Positions 1 to 8,684 of a stretch of DNA of 8,684 nucleotides are shown in pieces (the first letter of the stretch is position 1; the number at the start of each line of letters is the position of its first letter). Under the pieces are notes generated by a model. The model was not told the DNA's origin, did not search any database, and saw only the letters and a program-made list of their open reading frames with translations. Location of the stretch: positions 1 through 8,684 of IMG/VR virus record IMGVR_UViG_2909246061_000003; one strand, given 5' to 3'. The DNA is from a virus (taxonomy: Duplodnaviria; Heunggongvirae; Uroviricota; Caudoviricetes). Both the position numbers and the translations under genes were made by a program.

Positions 1-192
1 TCAGGAGCATTTCTGATTAACACCACCGTTAAGAATCCACCCCTCAACAGCTTCACGAAGGTATGATTTGGGGTGGGTTCTGACTGGCTTCGGAAATCCG
101 TGCCGTTTGGTATAGTTCCAGATTGTCTGACGTGATGAAACACCGAGCTTGTTCATCACTTCTTTCTCAGGAATCAGGCTGGTATCGGTCAT
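1..192 (-). CDS. Excisionase-like small DNA-binding protein (lambda Xis / AlpA-like), 63 aa
   Basis: Complete ORF on the minus strand: ATG at 192-190, TGA at 3-1. GGAG lies about 7 nt upstream of the ATG (revcomp of 201-204). The motif W-x-Y-x3-G-FPKPV-x-Y-x3-V-x-W resembles the winged-helix core of lambda Xis and AlpA-type regulators, from memory. Position at the prophage edge fits int lying further left, off-window. Confidence 0.55.
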   Translation of the reverse strand: MTDTSLIPEKEVMNKLGVSSRQTIWNYTKRHGFPKPVRTHPKSYLREAVEGWILNGGVNQKCS

Positions 193-204
193 CTTAATTC
201 TCCA

Positions 205-231
205 GGCAAAAAGAAACCGCCATCAGGCGGC
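205..231 (-). terminator. Intrinsic terminator-like hairpin between the 55-aa ORF and the excisionase-like gene
   Basis: Minus-strand reading: stem CCGCC, loop TGAT, stem GGCGG, then TTTCTTTTT (plus 217-221 pairs with 226-230; A-run at plus 208-216). The stop codon of the upstream 55-aa ORF sits in the loop. Confidence 0.45.
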
Positions 232-390
232 TTGGTGTTCTTTCAGTTCTTCAATTCGAATATTGGTTACGTCTGCATGCGCTATCTGCGCCCATATCAT
301 CCAGTGGTTATAGCAGTCGTTGATGCCCTCTGCTTCGATAACTCTGTTGAATGGTTCTCCATTCCATTCACCTGTGACTCGGAAGTGCAT
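223..390 (-). CDS. Hypothetical small protein, 55 aa (below the ORF-track length cutoff)
   Basis: Hand translation of the minus strand: ATG at 390-388, TGA at 225-223, GGAG about 7 nt upstream. Product MHFRVTGEWNGEPFNRVIEAEGINDCYNHWMIWAQIAHADVTNIRIEELKEHQAA. No family recognised. Confidence 0.3.
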   Translation of the reverse strand: MHFRVTGEWNGEPFNRVIEAEGINDCYNHWMIWAQIAHADVTNIRIEELKEHQAA

Positions 391-403
391 TTATCATCTC
401 CAT

Positions 404-427
404 AAAACAAAACTCGCCGTAGCGAGT
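404..427 (-). terminator. Intrinsic terminator-like hairpin (proximal of a tandem pair)
   Basis: Plus 412-417 ACTCGC pairs with 422-427 GCGAGT, loop CGTA. On the minus strand the hairpin is followed by TTTTGTTTT. Confidence 0.45.
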
Positions 428-440
428 TCAGATAAAAGAA

Positions 441-459
441 AACCCGCACTCGGCGGGTT
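441..459 (-). terminator. Intrinsic terminator-like hairpin (distal of a tandem pair)
   Basis: Plus 441-447 AACCCGC pairs with 453-459 GCGGGTT, loop ACTCG. On the minus strand the 7-bp GC-rich stem is followed by TTTTCTTTTAT. Confidence 0.5.
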
Positions 460-479
460 CGCATTCGTTCAAATTGCGT

Positions 480-578
480 TTACTTCTTGGCGTTCTGTTC
501 ATCCATATCGATATACCATGGGTTGCTTCCCTTGGGCATGTTTAACGACTGCTCGCGATAGTATCTGATGCGCTCCAT
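480..578 (-). CDS. Possible cIII-like micro-ORF, 32 aa (very tentative)
   Basis: Hand translation: ATG 578-576, TAA 482-480. Product MERIRYYREQSLNMPKGSNPWYIDMDEQNAKK. Loose resemblance to the ERI...LN.PG.PKNGSN stretch of lambda/P22 cIII from memory. No convincing SD. Lies in the leftward operon where cIII would be expected. Confidence 0.2.
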   Translation of the reverse strand: MERIRYYREQSLNMPKGSNPWYIDMDEQNAKK

Positions 579-738
579 GAAATACTCGCGTGAGTGCTCA
601 GGTTGCTCTCATGATACCTGCTCAGTGATAACAGGTATGTTAAGGCGCTCTCTGTACTCCATGCCTGATGCTGCAAGGTCAACGTTTACCTTGTTCTGTT
701 TTTCTTTCGATTTCTCGGCGATGTTATGCCTGACATTG

Positions 739-981
739 TCAACCCGCCTCCTTCTGAACATAACGGTTATAAATCAGTCCCTGAGGGCCATAAGGAAGCG
801 GGATGTGCAACTCCTCTGGTTCAGAAACTATCCATTCTCCGGCCATCTCCGCTGGAGAGGTAATGATAAGTTGTTTGCTAATAAAAGGACCACTCCTCTC
901 AACAACAAGCTTACCATCTTCATTAATAAAAGCTTGGATGTCAGGTGTGCTTCCACACTTGGTGATGCAGCGTTTGAACAT
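739..981 (-). CDS. Hypothetical protein, 80 aa (ORF-track frame 739..1023; internal ATG with SD preferred)
   Basis: Minus-strand ORF. The ATG at 981-979 is preceded by GGGGGA at about 6 nt; the upstream ATG at 1023 has no SD. Product begins MFKRCITKCGSTPDIQAFINEDGKLVVERSG. No family recognised. Confidence 0.4.
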   Translation of the reverse strand: MFKRCITKCGSTPDIQAFINEDGKLVVERSGPFISKQLIITSPAEMAGEWIVSEPEELHIPLPYGPQGLIYNRYVQKEAG

Positions 982-1107
982 TTTGTGTCCCCCCATTTTA
1001 TGTACGGGGTAATTATAACACATTGAAATATAGTAATATTTGACGTAGATTTCTTTTGATCTATAAGCGATTTTTTAATGCTTTTAAGTTATAAATACTT
1101 GTTTTCA

Positions 1108-1524
1108 TCACCCATCTTGCTGCGGTGCTACTATTGAAAAGTGCTCACACCCTTTAGCCCAAATAGTTTTGATAGTTGTCCAACTGACTGGAACCTTGAT
1201 TTCGATTCTCCCGCTACAGTCACAAGTTTCGCAATCATCATCACCAAAGCATTCCGGGCAGCTTATAAACGTAGTTTCTGAAAATTCACCGGATAGCACA
1301 CCCTTAGCGCCGTTCTCGGCTGTTAGTCTCTTCGGCACCATGACCCAACCATCCGGAATTACCGGAGAGTTGCCGGGTTCTTTAATGTGCAAGCGAGGCT
1401 CACCATCTTTTGGCTCAGGCCACTGGCGCTCCATGTTGATCTTCAATTTATCTTCCATAGCAGCGGTAATTTCAGCATCGCTGATGCCAGCACGGCGCTG
1501 TGCATCCCACAACAGGAAATGCAT
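1108..1524 (-). CDS. Hypothetical Cys-rich protein, 138 aa, possibly the 3' remnant of a longer gene
   Basis: Minus-strand ORF with protein-like composition, whereas the overlapping plus ORF 1169..1558 is Ser/Leu-rich and starts on TTG. C-terminal CPEC-x6-CETCDC cluster suggests metal binding. No SD before the ATG at 1524. The frame is open upstream only to a stop at 1557-1555, right at the junction where lambda-like sequence begins. Confidence 0.4.
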   Translation of the reverse strand: MHFLLWDAQRRAGISDAEITAAMEDKLKINMERQWPEPKDGEPRLHIKEPGNSPVIPDGWVMVPKRLTAENGAKGVLSGEFSETTFISCPECFGDDDCETCDCSGRIEIKVPVSWTTIKTIWAKGCEHFSIVAPQQDG

Positions 1525-1566
1525 ACAGTACGGAACTAAACGCGGAAAAGCCGCTTAAGACATTCC

Positions 1567-1598
1567 CGCTCTTACACATCCCAGCCCTGAAAAAGGGC
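1567..1598 (+). promoter_or_regulatory. nutR-like N-utilisation site: boxA CGCTCTTAC (1567-1575) and boxB GCCCTGAAAAAGGGC (1584-1598)
   Basis: Seen directly. Matches lambda nutR boxA/boxB as I recall them, with about one mismatch in the spacer. The following leader down to the cII ATG also looks lambda-like. Confidence 0.8.
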
Positions 1599-1677
1599 AT
1601 CAAATTAAACCACACCTATGGTGTATGCATTTATTTGCATACATTCAATCAATTGTTATCTAAGGAAATACTTACAT

Positions 1678-1956
1678 ATGCAACTTACAAGTACTCGCAA
1701 GAAAGCGAATGCAATTACAAGCAACATCCTGAATCGAATTGCTGTACGTGGTCAGCGAAAGGTTGCCGACGCGTTAGGGGTTAATGAATCGCAAATTTCG
1801 CGATGGAAAGACAGCTTCATCCCCAAAATGGGAATGCTTCTGGCTGTTCTTGAATGGGGTGTTGAAGACGAGGAGTTGGCGGAACTGGCTAAGCAAGTAG
1901 CCAGAATGCTGACAAAAGAAAAAGCCCCGAAGAACGGCGAATTCTTCGAGGCCTGA
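1678..1956 (+). CDS. cII: Transcriptional activator CII homologue, 92 aa
   Basis: The stretch SQISRWK...IPK..MLLAVLEWGV.D...A.LA.QVA..LT..K.P is collinear with lambda CII. ATG at 1678 is preceded by AAGGAAA. The ORF-track start at 1618 is an upstream non-ATG extension and is not used. The N-terminal 25 residues differ from lambda while the leader matches, indicating a mosaic. Confidence 0.85.
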   Translation: MQLTSTRKKANAITSNILNRIAVRGQRKVADALGVNESQISRWKDSFIPKMGMLLAVLEWGVEDEELAELAKQVARMLTKEKAPKNGEFFEA

Positions 1957-1990
1957 TGTAGAAAGACTGGATCAATCCACAGGAGTAATT

Positions 1991-2152
1991 ATGACAAAAC
2001 GTCGTAAGAAATACCAGGAAAAAGAAGAGATTCGACACCCTGATTCACCTGAGGGATTAGTGGTAGCCGCAGCAAATAACAGGGCGTTCGCAGAACGCCT
2101 TGTTGGTGTTTACAGACTAGCCAAAGCAGGAGTGAAACATGGGCGTCGTTAA
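1991..2152 (+). CDS. Small basic ORF, 53 aa, using a lambda-O-like RBS and start context
   Basis: AGGAG at 1981-1985, then ATG at 1991. Product MTKRRKKYQEKEEIRHPDSPEGLVVAAANNRAFAERLVGVYRLAKAGVKHGRR. Overlaps the O-like start by 14 nt. Could be a real small gene or a by-product of a recombination junction. Confidence 0.3.
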   Translation: MTKRRKKYQEKEEIRHPDSPEGLVVAAANNRAFAERLVGVYRLAKAGVKHGRR

Positions 2153-2936
2153 GTTAGCTGATTACAGGCCTCAACTGGAGGTCGTGGAGCATCGCGTGGC
2201 AGATACCGAAGATGGTTTCATGCGCATTGCTAACGAGATTACCGACAGTCTGCTGATGGCTGATTTAACCGTCCGGCAGTTGAAGGTGATGCTCGCTATC
2301 ATGCGCAAGACATACGGATTCAATAAGCCGATGGATCGACTCACAAACACGCAGATAGCAGCCATGACAGGTATTCATCACACTCATGTTTGCGCTGCCA
2401 AGCGCCAGCTTATCGAGCGTAAATTCCTCATTGCTGATGGCGTGAAAATCGGAGTGAACAAGGTGGTTTCTCAGTGGATTAGCCAGGACAGCTTAACATT
2501 AGCTAAAACAGCTAATAAAACATTAGCCAAGTCGGCTAATGGGTATAAGCCAAGTCAGCTAAACACAAAAGACAATATACAAAAGACAATAAATACAAAT
2601 ACCCCCTTACCCCCTAACGGGGGCGGCGATGGGCAGGTTAAACCTGAACGTCGCAAGGCAGAACGAATCGACTACGAATCCTTCCTGAACGCCTACAACA
2701 CCGAAGTCGGTGACAGACTGCCACACGCTGTTGCGGTCAACGAGAAACGCAAACGCCGCCTGAAGAAAATCATCCCGCAACTGAAAACGCCAAACGTGGA
2801 CGGTTTCAGAGCGTATGTCAGGGCGTTTGTGCATCAGGCCAAGCCGTTTTACTTCGGAGACAACGACACGGGCTGGACGGCCGATTTTGATTACCTGCTG
2901 AGGGAAGACTCGTTAACGGGAGTTCGGGAAGCGTAG
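2139..2936 (+). CDS. Replication initiator, lambda O-like N-terminal domain, 265 aa
   Basis: AGGAG at 2128-2132, ATG at 2139, in-frame stop immediately upstream. N-terminal half is collinear with lambda O (RVAD.EDG...L...L..ADLT.RQ.KV.LAI.RKTYG.NKPMDR.T..Q). C-terminal half is not recognisably lambda O. Internal iteron-like repeats are listed separately. Confidence 0.8.
   Translation: MGVVKLADYRPQLEVVEHRVADTEDGFMRIANEITDSLLMADLTVRQLKVMLAIMRKTYGFNKPMDRLTNTQIAAMTGIHHTHVCAAKRQLIERKFLIADGVKIGVNKVVSQWISQDSLTLAKTANKTLAKSANGYKPSQLNTKDNIQKTINTNTPLPPNGGGDGQVKPERRKAERIDYESFLNAYNTEVGDRLPHAVAVNEKRKRRLKKIIPQLKTPNVDGFRAYVRAFVHQAKPFYFGDNDTGWTADFDYLLREDSLTGVREA
2477..2603 (+). repeat. Origin-like array inside the O-like gene: four iteron-like repeats followed by an AT-rich tract
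   Basis: Repeats of about 21-24 bp, each with internal dyad ATTAGC...GCTAAT: 2477-2497, 2497-2520, 2521-2544, 2545-2568. Then an A/T-rich tract to about 2603 (AAAAGACAATATACAAAAGACAATAAATACAAATAC). Same architecture as ori-lambda inside O. Confidence 0.5.
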
Positions 2937-2962
2937 CTAAATTTCATTCGCCAAAAAGCCCG

Positions 2963-3541
2963 ATGATGAGCGACTCACCACGGGCTACGGCTTCTGACTC
3001 TCTTTCCGGTACTGATGTGATGGCTGCTATGGGGATGGCGCAATCACAAGCCGGATTCGGTATGGCTGCATTCTGTGGTAAGCACGAACTCAGCCAGAAC
3101 GACAAACAAAAGGCTATCAACTATCTGATGCAATTTGCACACAAGGTATCGGGGAAATACCGTGGTGTGGCAAAGATCGAAGGAAATACTAAGGCAAAGG
3201 TACTGCAAGTGCTCGCAACATTCGCTTATGCGGATTATTGCCGTAGTGCCGCGACGCCGGGGGCAAGATGCAGAGATTGCCACGGTACAGGCCGTGTGGT
3301 TGATATAGCAAAAACAGAGCAGTGGGGGAGAGTTGTTGAGAAAGAGTGCGGAAGATGCAAAGGTGTCGGCTATTCAAGGATGCCAGCAAGCGCCGCATAT
3401 CGCGCTGTAACGATGCTAATTCCAAACCTCACCCAACCCACCTGGTCACGCACTGTTAAGCCGCTGTATGACGCTCTGGTGGTGCAATGCCACAAAGAAG
3501 AGTCAATCGCAGACAACATTTTGAACGCGGTCACACGTTAG
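2963..3541 (+). CDS. Q: Late antiterminator Q, lambda-type, read from the first in-frame ATG (192 aa); native start codon apparently lost
   Basis: Product has the Zn-binding CRDCHGTG...CGRCKGVG module and is collinear with lambda Q as I recall it. The frame is open upstream to 2891 and encodes ...VAKFHSPKSP before the Met-Met at 2963, matching lambda Q residues about 6-15, but no ATG/GTG/TTG or SD is present there. Only 26 bp separate it from the O-like stop. Confidence 0.75.
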   Translation: MMSDSPRATASDSLSGTDVMAAMGMAQSQAGFGMAAFCGKHELSQNDKQKAINYLMQFAHKVSGKYRGVAKIEGNTKAKVLQVLATFAYADYCRSAATPGARCRDCHGTGRVVDIAKTEQWGRVVEKECGRCKGVGYSRMPASAAYRAVTMLIPNLTQPTWSRTVKPLYDALVVQCHKEESIADNILNAVTR

Positions 3542-3583
3542 CAGCATGATTGCCACGGATGGCAACATATTAACGGCATAATA

Positions 3584-3612
3584 TTGACTTTTTGAATAAA
3601 GTTGGGTAAATT
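3584..3612 (+). promoter_or_regulatory. pR'-like late promoter (-35 TTGACT 3584-3589, 17-bp spacer, -10 TAAATT 3607-3612) with adjacent qut-like region
   Basis: Hexamers and spacing seen directly. The surrounding sequence closely resembles the lambda pR' region from memory, up to about 3640, where similarity ends. Confidence 0.6.
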
Positions 3613-3646
3613 TGACATCAACGATGGATAAATGCACTCGTTAAAT

Positions 3647-3685
3647 AAAGCCCTGAGTTAATAGCTCTGGGCTTTTTGCGTTTTA
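3647..3685 (+). terminator. Intrinsic terminator closing a short leader transcript from the pR'-like promoter
   Basis: Stem 3650-3657 GCCCTGAG pairs with 3665-3672 CTCTGGGC (one T-T mismatch), loop TTAATA, then TTTTTGCGTTTT. Confidence 0.5.
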
Positions 3686-3958
3686 AGCACGGCCTTTCTG
3701 AAAGCACATCAAACCAAATACCAGACAGACAATACCCTCACCTTATAGGGACACTTGCTTCAACAGGAGGGACGGTTAGGACCGCCATCCTATATGGGAC
3801 GACCGCCAATAGAACCACGGCCACGGTAATAGAACTCTTCAGAGATGGCACAGTCGCTGCCGGGCATACTTTTACGCTGAGAGATATTTCTTTTGGAGAC
3901 AGCAGGGCTCTAGGGGCTGATTTTGGAGGCTCCTTCGGGAATCTGTATAAGTTCTAAT

Positions 3959-3976
3959 CGGCCGCATCAGCGGCCG
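3959..3976. terminator. All-GC hairpin just past the gtrC stop, a possible operon-end or bidirectional terminator
   Basis: CGGCCGC (3959-3965), loop ATCA, GCGGCCG (3970-3976). A U-rich tract follows on the plus side only (TATCTCTTT). On the minus strand it lies 8 nt after the gtrC stop without a clean T-run. Confidence 0.35.
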
Positions 3977-3983
3977 TATCTCT

Positions 3984-5585
3984 TTACAGATAAGCGACGA
4001 AATAGCCGTCAATTTTCTTTATTTTAAGTTTGTCGCCATAGATGGATAGGGGCTTCTTGAGCCATGTATCGTCTGTGGCGACATATATCTCATTATTCCT
4101 TAGCGTACCCTTAGCCTTAATTTCGGCTATATATCTTTTGTTATTATCTATCGCTGCTTTGTCTGCTCTAGCAAAATACCCAAAATTAAGTTTCATTTTT
4201 TCTGAAGAAGCAAATTCAGCAAATGGGAGCCAATGTCTTAAGCTGAACTCATCGTAATCAGTGGTTATGATAGTGTCCTTCCCTTTGGAGATGACTTCCC
4301 ACTCTTTACTCAACATTTGAGAGCTGTATGGCTTACCAGTATATATCTCTCGAACGGCTTTGAAAAAGTTGCTTTCATCCGCCACTGATATTAATAGAAT
4401 AGGGAGCAAGACATAAGCAGAACTTTTCGAGGTTTTTGCTAAGTATGCCAAAACAATCAACATCAAGATCATCGTCACCGGCCAGAAGAACCGACCAGAA
4501 GAGCGAAAAACGCCACCAACCTTCATGAGAAAGTCATTCATTGGAATTTCAATGAGATTAAATCCATAAAAGTTAATTCGATAAGTTATAGAAACGGCAG
4601 CCAGAACTAAACAGAAGTACAATACAGGAGATTTTATAATTCTCCTGAAATCTATGGACTTTCTTAAAGAGGAGTCTATCAGCATAAACAAAAATAGCGT
4701 GATGATGCCTAATCCTAGATAATTTATACCCTCAAAGTTAGCCTGTTGACTCCCATGACTCAAGATAAGATGTGAGTATCTCTGGTCTCCTGGGTTGAAC
4801 CAGCCGGCAAGATCCATGTTAAGGAATCCGAATCCAGGGTATGGGTCAGAGCCTTTAATAACAAAGTATCCGGTAGCATACATTGCGAGAAATATTAACA
4901 CAGAGTAACACGCGAAAAAGAATGCCGATCTTTTTAAAGATAAACGGTTTGTGTTCAGTTTGTTTAAAATGTCAAATGCAAAAATTAAATACACCATTAT
5001 CAGCAAATATGCATGAATGGTGACTGAGAGAACTAAAATAGCAGCCCATCTTTTAAAGCAAAAAGACCTATTGATATAAAGGTAAAATCCAAAAAGAATT
5101 AGCCACTGAGCGCCTAATGCAAAGTGACCACCGGCACGATTTAAGAATATTGGTGCAATGCAGAAGAAGCATGAACCTATTGCAGAGAATATCTCATCCT
5201 TTGTTAACTTACGAAGAACCAAATACGCAGAAAACGTCATAAGCACAAAGCAAAGATACATCCAAAGCCCGTGATATTGAAATCTGGCGGGGAGAAAGTC
5301 GCTAAAAGGCTTGAATATGAAGGCCATAATTGGGATTGAGTCGGTGTAAACGATAGACCCACCTACACCCATCCCATAGTTATAATTTAGGCCAAGGGGC
5401 CACTGCAACAACGGAGTATTTCGGAAGAAATTCCATCCTGACCAGCTTTGACCAGGATCACCTATCATAAGCCATCCAACTCTTTTGAAGTCCAGCACAT
5501 TCACACCAACATACATAGCAAACATTGATGTCGTGAATATAAACATAAATAAGGACGCTAAAATCCTTTTTTGTGCCTTAGTCAT
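3984..5585 (-). CDS. Serotype-specific O-antigen glucosyltransferase, GtrC-type polytopic membrane protein, 533 aa
   Basis: Third gene of a gtrA-gtrB-gtr(type) operon. The ATG at 5585 overlaps the gtrB stop by 8 nt (ATGACTAA). N-terminal two-thirds has many hydrophobic segments; C-terminal hydrophilic domain of about 130 aa. Markedly AT-rich codon usage compared with neighbours. No close relative recognised from memory. Confidence 0.7.
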
Positions 5586-6501
5586 TGTGTTTATTCCTTA
5601 AGATGTAACGAGGCCTAGCCTTGACTTCAATATATATTCTTCCGATATATTCACCAAGAACGCCAATGCCGATAAGTTGAATCCCGCCCAAGAACAGGAT
5701 TGAAACAAGGAGTGAAGGATATCCTCTCACGGCATTTCCAAATGCAATAGTATCGATGATCATCCAGGCTCCGTAGATAAATGCAAGCCCAGCGACTAGT
5801 AATCCAATATAAGTCCACATACGTAGAGGGAATGTAGAAAAGCTAGTAATCCCTTCTAGAGCTAAATTCCAAAGCTTCCAGCCATTAAACTTTGTGCAAC
5901 CAGCGACTCGCTCAGCTCTGGCGTATTCTACTACATCTGTTTTCCCGCCAACCCAAGACAAAACGCCCTTCATGAACAAGTTTCTTTCTGGCATTAGTTT
6001 GATATTTTCTACCACTTCTCGTGACATTAAACGGAAGTCACCGACGTTCTCTTCAATTTTGGGATTGCTGATTTTATTGTGTAGCTTATAGAACCACTCA
6101 GCTGATTTTCGCTTTAAACGACCGTCAGTAGACCTGTCTGTACGTTTGGCCAGAACCATATCCGCCCCAGCCTGCCACTTCTCAATTAGGTGGGGGATTA
6201 CTTCAATTGGGTCCTGCAGATCTACATCAATCGGAATGACCGCGTCGCCTGTAGCTTGGTCAAGGCCAGCAAACAAAGCCGGTTCCTTTCCGAAGTTACG
6301 CGTGAAGGAGAGAGGAACTACGAGTGGGTCAGCAATGGCAAGCGCGTTAATAATTGATTCTGTAGCGTCTTTGCTACCGTCGTTAATGAAGACTATTTCG
6401 ACTTCATGCTGCTGAAGCCCTTCAAATTCCCGCACGGTTTTATAGAAGATTGGAATTGCTTCCTCTTCATTAAACACAGGAACGACCAGAGAAATTTTCA
6501 T
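5578..6501 (-). CDS. gtrB: Bactoprenol glucosyltransferase GtrB (GT2 family), 307 aa
   Basis: Near-collinear with Shigella/Salmonella phage GtrB from memory ([23 protein letters not shown]...FINDGSKD...DVDLQDP...). ATG at 6501 overlaps the gtrA stop (ATGA). Confidence 0.9.
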
Positions 6502-6860
6502 TTCACATCCCTAAAGACAATGAACTTTGAATAAATAAACCCGCACACCAGACTGATGGCGGAGAACAGAATTAAGGTGATGATTGGTGCCAGACCAGAT
6601 TTATCCGCCGCCCAACCCACAGCTGCGCTAAGCGTCCCCATAAAGCCGACGTAAAGCATGTATCGCATGGTTGTTGTGGATGACTTAAACGTGAATCTGG
6701 CATTTGCGAAGAAGCTAAATGACACAGCCACAACGAACCCGGCAAAGTTGCCAAGGGCCTGTCCTGTATGGAATGCATAGATGCAAATTGCGAACACTAC
6801 CCAGTGAATGAGCGTGTTAATGACACCTATCGATGTGTACTTGGCGAATAACTTTAACAT
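6498..6860 (-). CDS. gtrA: Bactoprenol-linked glucose translocase (flippase) GtrA, 120 aa
   Basis: From the internal ATG at 6860 the product [23 protein letters not shown]... matches GtrA at its usual 120-aa length. The ORF-track start at 6923 is a GTG extension and is not used. Confidence 0.85.
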
Positions 6861-6936
6861 TATAGAAATCAGTGAATTCGGAAAGGTCTGAAGTGTAGCA
6901 CCACAAACGCTATTGATCGACACCGCCGATCAGTAC

Positions 6937-6950
6937 TACTGTATTAATAT
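6937..6950. promoter_or_regulatory. Left half of an interrupted LexA (SOS) box: TACTGT plus the ATTAATAT centre
   Basis: Joining 6937-6950 to 8275-8280 (removing the IS and one copy of the duplication) gives TACTGTATTAATATACAGTA, i.e. CTGT-N8-ACAG with an AT-rich centre, close to the TACTG(TA)5CAGTA consensus. Confidence 0.6.
6943..6950. repeat. Target-site duplication ATTAATAT, left copy
   Basis: Identical 8-mer directly abuts both IS termini (6943-6950 and 8267-8274). Confidence 0.75.
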
Positions 6951-8266
6951 GGGTCTTCCCTTGTTGTGGTGGCTGAAGGCATGATAATGGTGTATTTAAT
7001 CGCCAGAGGTCACCGCCATGGACGAAAAGTCCCTCTACGCTCATATTCTCAACCTGTCCGATCCGTGGCAGGTAAAGTCCCTTTCTCTCGATGAAAATGC
7101 CGGTTCTGTTACTGTCACTATTGAGATCGCTGAAAACACCCGGCTAGCCTGTCCGGCCTGCGGTAAATCCTGTTCTGTTCACGATCACCGTCATCGTAAA
7201 TGGCGCCATCTTGATACCTGCCAGTTCACCACTATTGTTGAAGCCGATGTTCCACGAATTATGTGTCCGGAGCATGGCTGTCAGACGTTGCCTGTTCCGT
7301 GGGCTGGCCCCGGAAGCCGGTATACGTTGCTGTTCGAATTGTTCGTTCTCTCATGGCTGAAAATCAGCACCGTTGATGCTGTCAGGAAGCAACTTAAGCT
7401 CAGCTGGAATGCGGTTGACGGCATTATGACCCGGGCAGTTAAGCGAGGTCTTGCCCGGATAAAAAAGCCATTATCCGCCCGTCATATGAATGTGGATGAG
7501 GTCGCCTTTAAAAAAGGACATCGTTACATAACGGTGATCTCCGATCGCGATGGTCGGGCGCTGGCCTTAACGGATGATCGCGGCACAGAGAGTCTTGCCG
7601 GCTATCTTCGCACACTCACTGATGGGCAGTTGCTGGCTATCAAAACGCTCTCAATGGACATGAACGCGGGCTATATAAGAGCAGCGCGCATCCACTTACC
7701 CAGCGCGGTTGAGAAAATCGCCTTTGACCGCTTCCATGTGGCGAAGCAACTGGGCGAGGTAGTTGATAAAACCCGTCAGAATGAACATCCGCACCTCCCT
7801 GTTGAAAGCCGACGCCAGGCAAAAGGAACCCGCTTCCTGTGGCAGTACAGTGATAAGTGGATGACTGAATCCCGGCAGGAAAAGCTGATGTGGCTGCGTG
7901 CACAGATGAAGCTGACGAGCCAGTGCTGGGCGCTGAAAGAGCTGGCAAAGGATATCTGGAACAGGCCATGGAGCGAGGAAAGGCGGAGTGACTGGCAGAG
8001 ATGGCTGGCGCTGGCGGCTAACAGTGACGTTCCCATGATGAAAAATGCTGCGAAAACGATAGGAAAAAGGCTGTACGGGATCCTGAATGCGATGCGACAC
8101 AGTGTCTCAAACGGAAATGCGGAGGCACTTAACAGCAAGATAAGGTTGCTGAGAATAAAAGCCAGGGGATACCGAAACCGGGAGCGCTTTAAACTGGGAG
8201 TGATGTTCCACTACGGTAAGCTGAATATGGAGTTCTGAGCCTTCCCACCATGATCGGGGAAGACCC
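6951..8266 (+). mobile_element. ISL3-family insertion sequence, about 1.3 kb, with imperfect terminal inverted repeats
   Basis: Left end GGGTCTTCCC...GGTGG..GAAGGC (from 6951) mirrors the reverse complement of the right end (...GCCTTCCCACC...GGGGAAGACCC ending at 8266). Contains a single transposase ORF and is flanked by an 8-bp direct repeat. Confidence 0.75.
7018..8238 (+). CDS. ISL3-family transposase, 406 aa
   Basis: ATG at 7018. N-terminal Cys/His zinc-ribbon (CPACG...C..H.H) followed by a long catalytic region, typical of ISL3-type transposases from memory. The three antisense ORFs within it are taken as artefacts. Confidence 0.85.
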   Translation: MDEKSLYAHILNLSDPWQVKSLSLDENAGSVTVTIEIAENTRLACPACGKSCSVHDHRHRKWRHLDTCQFTTIVEADVPRIMCPEHGCQTLPVPWAGPGSRYTLLFELFVLSWLKISTVDAVRKQLKLSWNAVDGIMTRAVKRGLARIKKPLSARHMNVDEVAFKKGHRYITVISDRDGRALALTDDRGTESLAGYLRTLTDGQLLAIKTLSMDMNAGYIRAARIHLPSAVEKIAFDRFHVAKQLGEVVDKTRQNEHPHLPVESRRQAKGTRFLWQYSDKWMTESRQEKLMWLRAQMKLTSQCWALKELAKDIWNRPWSEERRSDWQRWLALAANSDVPMMKNAAKTIGKRLYGILNAMRHSVSNGNAEALNSKIRLLRIKARGYRNRERFKLGVMFHYGKLNMEF

Positions 8267-8274
8267 ATTAATAT
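8267..8274. repeat. Target-site duplication ATTAATAT, right copy
   Basis: See left copy. Confidence 0.75.
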
Positions 8275-8280
8275 ACAGTA
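8267..8280. promoter_or_regulatory. Right half of the interrupted LexA box: ATTAATAT centre plus ACAGTA
   Basis: See left half. Sits about 18 nt upstream of the RBS/ATG of the UmuD'-like gene; TAATAT within it could serve as a -10. Confidence 0.6.
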
Positions 8281-8297
8281 ACTATCGGAGGTGAGTT

Positions 8298-8684
8298 ATG
8301 GGATTCCCGAGTCCGGCTCAAGACTATGTTGAAGAGCGCGTATTGCTCGACAAGCGCATCATAAGCAGACCAGCGGCCACGTATTTCATGAGAGCGGGTG
8401 CAACGCATCACCGCGAAGGCATCCTGAATGGTGCTCTTCTGGTAGTGGATGCATCGCTATCACCATGTGACGGCTCGTTGCTGGTTTGCAGAATGGAAGG
8501 TGAGCTGAGGATTAAGCGATATCGCAAATCACCAAAGCCTCACCTGGAGGATTTGCAGACGGGAAGGCGTGAGGAGATACCGGCACACGATGACGGCACG
8601 AGTCCGGATGCGATATTTGGTGTGATCACCTACATCATAAACGATGCACGCTCTGGCGAGTTTGATGATTGTCTGATTATGTGA
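8298..8684 (+). CDS. UmuD'-like protein (peptidase S24 fold, natively lacking the N-terminal arm; phage P1 HumD-like), 128 aa
   Basis: GGAGGTGA RBS, ATG at 8298, in-frame stop at 8292-8294. Product begins MGFPSPAQDY, which corresponds to the GFPSPA segment immediately after the RecA-mediated cleavage site of UmuD/MucA. The rest is collinear with UmuD/MucA from memory, including the conserved Lys (RIKRY), but the GDSM Ser motif is replaced by GATHH. TGA ends exactly at the window edge. Confidence 0.75.
   Translation: MGFPSPAQDYVEERVLLDKRIISRPAATYFMRAGATHHREGILNGALLVVDASLSPCDGSLLVCRMEGELRIKRYRKSPKPHLEDLQTGRREEIPAHDDGTSPDAIFGVITYIINDARSGEFDDCLIM

Follow-up and report, generated by a model that had tools for sequence, protein, structure and literature searches.

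A truncated lambda-type late cassette facing a gtr operon: the very probable scar of a 23.9-kb deletion in an Escherichia coli prophage

The late promoter and its neighbouring genes

We analysed 8,684 nt of a Caudoviricetes record (IMG/VR IMGVR_UViG_2909246061_000003, positions 1 to 8,684), and this whole stretch is referred to as the window. In the window, open reading frames and Pfam matches reveal part of a lambdoid early-right region and, after it, a gtr cluster; the remaining features are an insertion sequence of the ISL3 family and a umuD-like gene for an S24 peptidase. The genes on both sides of the locus are listed below.

1678-1956: cII (open reading frame and Pfam)
2139-2936: replication gene O (open reading frame and Pfam)
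2963-3541, plus strand: Q', an N-terminally truncated gene for a lambda-type antiterminator (PF03589, E = 1.1e-57)
3984-5585, minus strand: gene in the gtrC position, encoding a DUF6311 membrane protein of 533 aa (PF19830, E = 5.9e-64)
5578-6501, minus strand: gtrB, encoding a bactoprenol glucosyltransferase of family GT2 (PF00535, E = 2.7e-30; annotated as yfdH)
6498-6860, minus strand: gtrA (PF04138, E = 1.7e-14; annotated as GtrA family protein)

The flippase-like gtrA, the GT2 gene gtrB and the polytopic third gene are overlapping or adjacent minus-strand reading frames in one operon, and family membership assigns them to the gtrABC operons predicted to carry out O-antigen glucosylation. 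The stop codon of the gtrC-position gene lies at 3984-3986 on the minus strand; as an earlier sequence-only reading of this DNA had it, the gene is convergent with the late promoter pR' and turns its 3' end towards it. The protein (WP_072778257.1) is identical in strains PSS-10, 1506 and TUM12357. In Salmonella, gtr operons have been described as adjoining tailspike genes and persisting in prophage remnants (PMC2629481).

Between Q' and gtrC, four elements of a late transcription unit were located.

3584-3612, plus strand: late promoter pR', with the -35 hexamer TTGACT (3584-3589), a 17-bp spacer and the -10 hexamer TAAATT (3607-3612)
3590-3610, plus strand: Q-binding element (qut/QBE) between the -35 and -10 hexamers, placed by alignment with lambda
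3620-3625, plus strand: sigma-dependent pause element AACGAT, -10-like and identical to lambda in the alignment
3647-3677, plus strand: tR', an intrinsic terminator of the HK97/HK022-type late leader (fold and homologues)

When the locus was aligned with lambda, identity ran from the end of Q through the -35 hexamer, the qut element, the -10 hexamer and the pause element. The hexamers, their spacing and AACGAT showed no differences from lambda pR', and 19 of the 21 qut positions matched; the two mismatches are the same ones that are annotated in HK542. The homologous stretch is annotated as promoter plus qut in the GenBank records of HK542, mEpX1, HK544 and others. A consensus promoter scan found one site in 900 bp, compared with 1.7 expected in shuffled sequences, which is not above chance; thus the scan alone is no evidence for pR', and the support comes from homology. 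Considering this homology and the +1 position of lambda pR', we take the transcript start to be at about 3619-3620. The similarity to lambda ends near 3642, approximately 23 nt past that start, which falls within the 20-30 nt proposed in the sequence-only reading, and the promoter that it had called pR'-like at 3584-3612 agrees with ours in both coordinates and lambda homology. Judged by these comparisons, the site is a late promoter of the Q-lambda type followed by a terminator.

The role of the sigma-dependent pause element is part of the published description of the Q cassette (PMC9388147). Among the components in that description, a Q-family gene upstream, a pR' with a QBE, the pause element and a downstream terminator are present here, whereas a full-length Q with residues 1-44 and the downstream late genes are absent (PMC9388147).

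The Q' gene begins at Met16 (ATG at 2963) and therefore encodes a protein without residues 1-15, and its residues 16-207 are identical to the 207-aa Q protein of the strain 1506 prophage. Identity with the strain 1506 gene starts at 2929, 11 nt into Q, and in place of Q codons 1-4 stands the 3' end of an O gene of the HK446 type, itself missing its last 29 nt. The Q frame contains a stop codon at 2888-2890 and has no in-frame start before ATG 2963. Neither a Shine-Dalgarno sequence nor any other recognisable ribosome-binding site was found upstream of the Q' start, and a search of 1500-3000 for sigma-70-like promoters gave none on either strand. Since the homology with HK446 begins only just after cro, the promoter pR and the genes cro and cI are missing.

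Residues 1-44 of Qλ, including helix 1 (residues 1-11), fold into a torus that narrows the RNA-exit channel and are needed for antitermination (PMC9388147). The two Qλ variants tested in the literature, V6A and a deletion of residues 1-38, abolished antitermination while QBE binding was unaffected (PMC9388147). By analogy, Q' would be a member of the gene family that is probably not functional, and the gene should be annotated as truncated. Because residues 1-15, a ribosome-binding site and pR are all missing, a Q-modified, terminator-resistant polymerase is unlikely to arise here, we infer. The geometry for read-through into the gtr operon does exist, as had been pointed out before, but the escaping Q-modified polymerase that was supposed to produce antisense transcripts there is the unlikely part of that proposal.

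The terminator and the DNA up to gtrC

The fold of tR' consists of a hairpin at 3647-3675 followed by a T-run to 3677, with a ΔG of -14.8 kcal/mol compared with -18.7 kcal/mol for the HK97 allele. The HK97 allele was flagged as a 13-pair terminator, whereas a strict terminator scan missed that of the window because of a single U.U mismatch within the stem (3654/3668). The mismatch results from a G-to-T change at 3668 that converts a U.G pair. T3668 is found in the window and in PSS-10 but also in the intact strain 1506 prophage, so that the change has nothing to do with the deletion.

HK97 is 97.6% identical to the window across 2929-3746. A pattern search in IMG/VR returned 19 contigs, and in every one of them this hairpin and T-run follow the pattern, so that tR' is present in 20 phage sequences (HK97 and the 19 viral contigs). 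Its occurrence in these phages indicates that tR' did not arise from a rearrangement. In two of the contigs (L016 and L022), the sequence is unrelated directly after the T-run, suggesting that tR' marks the end of an exchangeable Q-pR'-tR' module. As assessed from these homologues, the terminator that had seemed to cut the leader short is the native tR' of an HK97/HK022-type leader and not the product of a rearrangement. The leader was thus rightly said to end early, at a terminator that does exist at 3647-3677, but the arrangement is that of a normal pR'-tR' module. With a predicted length of about 58-65 nt, the leader RNA corresponds to the lambda 6S unit in its HK97/HK022 version. No specific account of the HK97/HK022 tR' turned up in the literature that could be searched, and an Rfam scan of the whole window (E <= 1) gave no match within 3584-3984. 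The sole Rfam match was rsmX at 407-542; its 24 bits fall short of the gathering score of 56, and we dismissed it as a chance match.

Four further features could be assigned between the terminator and gtrC.

3678-3746, plus strand: rest of the native late leader beyond tR', matching strain 1506 at 100% (L004, up to 22015)
3744-3746, unstranded: deletion junction with TAT microhomology (three-way comparison with both strain 1506 flanks)
3745-3957, plus strand: 3' remnant of a tailspike gene, codons 681-750 of 750, with the stop codon at 3955-3957 (matching the last part of the strain 1506 coding sequence at 100%)
3959-3976, unstranded: 7-bp all-GC hairpin (scan and fold), a candidate bidirectional terminator or 3'-end stabiliser

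The native leader stretch is 69 nt long and ends at the deletion breakpoint. Hence the roughly 300 bp that had been regarded as anonymous DNA without a convincing reading frame is composed of 69 nt of native leader and a tailspike fragment. The search of 3686-3958 against tail-fibre fragments that the sequence-only reading had suggested was positive, returning the last 70 tailspike codons at 3745-3957. In strain 1506, the tailspike coding sequence (750 aa) is annotated as glycosyl hydrolase family 28-related (GH28), and the full protein matches the pectate-lyase-like family PF12708. A 93-codon reading frame at 3676-3957 was considered as a missed gene and rejected, being a chimera of leader sequence and the 70 tailspike codons. 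It starts with a TTG inside the terminator T-run, has no recognisable ribosome-binding site and gave no Pfam match; it should not be annotated as a gene.

The tailspike stop codon (3955-3957) and the gtrC stop codon (3984-3986) are 26 nt apart, and the GC hairpin lies in this spacer. Its ΔG is -14.1 kcal/mol, and the fold around it has z-scores of -6.9 on the plus strand and -4.7 on the minus strand relative to shuffled sequences. The accompanying T-run is modest on the plus strand and poor on the minus strand. The same hairpin sequence is found at the same position in the intact prophage of strain 1506 (100% identity), indicating that it was inherited and is no feature of the rearrangement. 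We regard it as inherited along with the two convergent units, tailspike and gtrC, for which it is a candidate terminator or 3'-end hairpin. Of the suggestion that it insulates pR' from the gtr operon, the hairpin itself holds; it did not arise for that purpose, as it is already present in strain 1506.

A very probable deletion junction, resolved by an intact sister prophage

Strain 1506 carries an apparently intact E. coli prophage at the same chromosomal site, between sbcB and dacD, as the PSS-10 element described below. Because the closest cultured phage to the morphogenesis module missing from the window, Pantoea phage PA-1, reached just 76%, this prophage served as the reference. Its gene order begins with the integrase, the early genes, Q, holin, endolysin, Rz, terminase and head genes, and continues with a contractile-tail module of sheath and baseplate genes, the tailspike gene, the convergent gtrC-gtrB-gtrA and the S24 peptidase gene.

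Two blocks of the window are 100% identical to the strain 1506 prophage. The left block, 2929-3746, corresponds to L004 21198-22015, from Q codon 5 to 205 bp beyond the Q stop codon, and contains Q, pR' with qut, the pause element, the terminator and the first part of the late leader. The right block, 3744-6950, corresponds to L002 20001-23207 and runs from tailspike codon 680/681 through gtrCBA. A distance of 23,869 bp separates the two blocks in strain 1506 (the segment absent from the window is NZ_CP059288 1772015-1795883), and the parental sequences share TAT alone at the joint, a 3-bp microhomology. Inspection of the window reading frames and annotations revealed no holin, endolysin or structural gene after Q, in agreement with what had been noticed from the letters, and those genes fall within the deleted 23,869 bp. 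The late lysis and morphogenesis genes that should follow the terminator are thus absent, and only the 70 tailspike codons are left. The early region, including the O allele and the immunity region, differs between the window and strain 1506, with 100% identity only rightwards from 2929; therefore, the strain 1506 prophage is a sister copy rather than the parent itself.

Taken as a comparison of sequences, these matches make it very probable that a 23.9-kb deletion in a lambda-like E. coli prophage left this stretch as its scar, an instance of ordinary prophage decay. The ancestor would have resembled the strain 1506 prophage and would have been sited between sbcB and dacD. Illegitimate recombination at the 3-bp TAT would then have joined the late leader, 69 nt past tR', to tailspike codon 681.

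To see how widely the joint occurs, 5,426 complete E. coli genomes were searched by megablast with 3400-4100 as the query, which split at one point into a left part (3400-3746) and a right part (3744-4100). The left part matched approximately 1,240 genomes and many HK97/HK022-type phages at 95-99%, while the right part matched three genomes only, and both parts were contiguous in PSS-10 alone (1 of the 5,426). The complete genome of PSS-10 is 100% identical over 3400-4100 and 99.98% identical over 1524-6950, and the element lies there between sbcB and dacD, beside a phage integrase. The junction 35-mer CAATACCCTCACCTTATAGGGACACTTGCTTCAAC had no match in species-representative genomes and was present in one metagenome contig, OBZI01000637.1, which is 100% identical to 3146-6950 and does not have the insertion sequence.

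The early regions of these junction carriers are in different states. In OBZI01000637.1, a repressor-like gene is kept, and about 40 first codons of a cro-like gene are fused in frame to Q at residue ~78; both genes are presumably of the 434 type. PSS-10 has the same late junction as the window and also its O-Q' junction, and relative to PSS-10 the window misses a further 3.6 kb and has gained an insertion sequence. The junction of that insertion sequence had no match among complete E. coli genomes. The occurrence of the same junction together with differently decayed early regions indicates that the late deletion is genuine and preceded those of the early region. A copy of this prophage in TUM12357 has eroded on its own, through deletions at other places (baseplate and tailspike genes), and encodes identical GtrABC proteins. 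Lytic functions would accordingly seem to have been lost stepwise, while the gtr operon, being useful to the host, would have been kept.

Predicted behaviour, alternatives and related systems

In lysogens, pR' is constitutive and yields short RNAs terminated at tR' (PMC7547250). As in lambda and Stx lysogens, pR' of the window would still fire constitutively, and nearly all of its transcripts would stop at the native tR' to give an RNA of about 58-65 nt. Q' would probably be made poorly, if at all, and would be defective in antitermination, so that no terminator-resistant polymerase is expected. Rare read-through of the slightly weakened tR' would cross the tailspike remnant and meet the GC hairpin before gtrC. 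In principle, antisense transcripts into gtrC could arise; there is no sign that such transcription has been co-opted, and the same topology is found in the intact phage.

Two functional explanations were weighed, namely that the orphan pR'-tR' unit yields a stable, StxS-like small RNA of about 60 nt, or that a leaky tR' provides antisense control of gtr; even the pair of them together we consider improbable. Either role, if true, would explain why the block stays intact while the early regions of the sister copies erode. On the first, the leader RNA of about 58-65 nt would act in trans, in the manner of StxS, and the unit would owe its retention to this role. Leaders from pR' that end at tR' are abundant in lysogens, with StxS as a functional example (PMC7547250). 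Of what would define an StxS-like regulator, namely a stable short transcript that binds Hfq and pairs with a target, the sequence shows the promoter and the terminator. In addition, the predicted RNA ends in a terminator hairpin and a U-run, and the pR'-tR' module is 100% identical in the three known junction carriers although their early regions decay differently. However, carriers with 100% identity are too closely related for this conservation to indicate selection, a breakpoint 69 nt past tR' is equally explicable by chance, and the Rfam scan had no match in the leader region, so that we give the small-RNA role a very low probability.

The second explanation, an antisense switch in which Q'-boosted read-through from pR' runs against gtrCBA and tunes O-antigen modification, is less probable still. 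The relic late cassette of the Q-lambda type does point at the 3' end of gtrC, with pR' 367 nt from the gtrC stop codon, and the U.U mismatch weakens the tR' stem by the energies given above. Nevertheless, the intact prophage already has the same convergent topology, and it shares T3668, which is thus no adaptation to the deletion. Moreover, Q' has neither the N-terminal residues for antitermination nor a promoter or recognisable ribosome-binding site, two hairpins stand between pR' and gtrC, and the junction was found in only 1 of 5,426 complete E. coli genomes.

The joint could also be taken for an assembly artefact or for a natural mosaic boundary between two unrelated phages, given that lambdoid genomes are mosaic and that two viral contigs switch sequence just past tR', but this is the least credible alternative of all, as the junction occurs in three independent assemblies (the window, the complete PSS-10 genome and the ENA metagenome contig), a single intact prophage, which shares the chromosomal site and the orientation, matches both flanks at 100% identity, and the right flank begins mid-codon in the tailspike gene.

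Read as a deletion scar, the locus combines a cassette of a known and annotated type with a scar specific to one strain lineage. It provides a base-pair-resolved example of how a lambdoid prophage can be disarmed by a single microhomology-mediated deletion, with all lysis and virion genes removed, divergent erosion of the early region afterwards, and the gtr operon for O-antigen modification retained. Beyond annotation, its significance is small.

The nearest known system is the Q-lambda-dependent late cassette in its HK97/HK022/HK542 version, with which the window shares the lambda-type Q, the hexamers, their spacing and the pause element. In contrast to that cassette, Q here is without residues 1-15, the terminator stem has the G-to-T change, no late genes follow, and only 69 nt of leader are left beyond tR'. 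The 6S RNA of lambda is 194 nt long. By analogy, the pR' unit of the window would follow the same logic as lambda 6S RNA and StxS, in which a constitutive pR' is stopped at the first intrinsic terminator; in Stx phages, pR' and tR' are 258 nt apart (PMC7547250). Compared with these, the RNA predicted here is only about 58-65 nt, and its sequence is unrelated past about +23.

The operon resembles the gtrABC modules of P22-like and Shigella serotype-converting phages in having gtrA, gtrB and a variable gene in the gtrC position, convergent with a tailspike gene. It is situated near the dacD-side end of the prophage, opposite the integrase, and, like known gtrABC modules, is kept in degraded prophages (PMC2629481). 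Differences from those modules are that the gtrC-position protein belongs to DUF6311 and that the sister prophage has a contractile tail with a baseplate rather than a short tail of the P22 type.

DLP12, Qin and Rac are cryptic lambdoid prophages of E. coli that were formed by stepwise deletion. The remnant in the window is like them in its multiple internal deletions, its orphaned Q-pR', its inserted IS element and the few host-useful genes that are kept. It differs from them in its location at sbcB/dacD and in being a recent and rare remnant, whose intact sister copy permits an exact reconstruction.

Early-region junctions and the order of decay

The early region of the window contains the following joints.

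2929-2963: second deletion junction, HK446-type O gene fused to Q codon 5
1524-1598: third junction, joint at ~1524-1528, cro gene end beside a pyrophosphohydrolase-like gene

At the second deletion junction, the O gene without its last 29 nt was joined to Q at 2929-2931, and the helicase gene and the entire nin region were lost. After this junction, Met16 is the sole possible start for Q. At the third junction, the 3' codons of cro (1527-1559, translation ...QYGTKRGKAA*), which we take to be 434-type, adjoined the dATP/dGTP pyrophosphohydrolase-like gene located on the minus strand (1108-1524). Compared with the E. coli PSS-10 genome, the window lacked 3.6 kb here. The nutR boxB GCCCTGAAAAAGGGC was retained at 1584-1598, and despite its survival, no N gene, pR or cI gene was left in the window.

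The metagenome contig OBZI01000637.1 (L027; region 3958-5206) had the same late-region junction as the window and a different early region, indicating that the late deletion is older than the divergent decay of the early region. In this contig, a repressor-like gene was retained and Q residue ~78 was fused in frame to codons 1 to ~40 of a cro-like gene; the repressor-like and cro-like genes are both presumably 434-type. Such a fusion would generate a repressor-controlled Cro'-'Q chimera.

At the left end of the window, the equivalent of 480-761 (minus strand) was annotated in PSS-10 as a pseudogene for DNA polymerase III theta (holE-like) that contains an internal stop. Two terminator-like hairpins were present nearby, at ~209-232 and ~440-465, one of which overlapped a sub-threshold Rfam rsmX match (407-542) that probably arose by chance.

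The tR' allele and related prophages

A G-to-T substitution at 3668 in the 3' arm of tR', the terminator of the late leader, changed a U.G pair to U.U and weakened the hairpin by ~4 kcal/mol. The T allele was shared by the window, PSS-10, the intact prophage of strain 1506 and the metagenome contig, and was found neither in HK97 nor in any of 19 IMG/VR contigs (0/19).

The sister prophage in strain 1506 paired lambda-type regulation (cII, O, nin, Qλ and a lambda-family holin) with a module encoding a contractile tail and baseplate, plus a GH28-like tailspike. The closest phage record to its tail module was Pantoea phage PA-1, with only 76% identity. A further relative was located at the same chromosomal site.

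E. coli TUM12357 (L025), 3284-6240: a copy of the same prophage that eroded independently

Deletions inside this copy affected the baseplate and tailspike genes and ended at different points, and its GtrA, GtrB and GtrC proteins were identical.

Insertion sequence upstream of gtrA

6951-8266: ISKox3-like insertion sequence of the ISL3 family, 1,316 bp

This element, bounded by the terminal inverted repeats GGGTCTTCCC and flanked by the 8-bp target duplication ATTAATAT (6943-6950 and 8267-8274), was located between gtrA and the umuD-like gene, 90 bp upstream of the gtrA start codon. Among the sequences compared, it was not found in PSS-10, 1506, TUM12357 or the metagenome contig. The insertion may cut gtr off from some of the control region upstream of it; on the gtrA side, GATC was kept at two sites (6915 and 6928).
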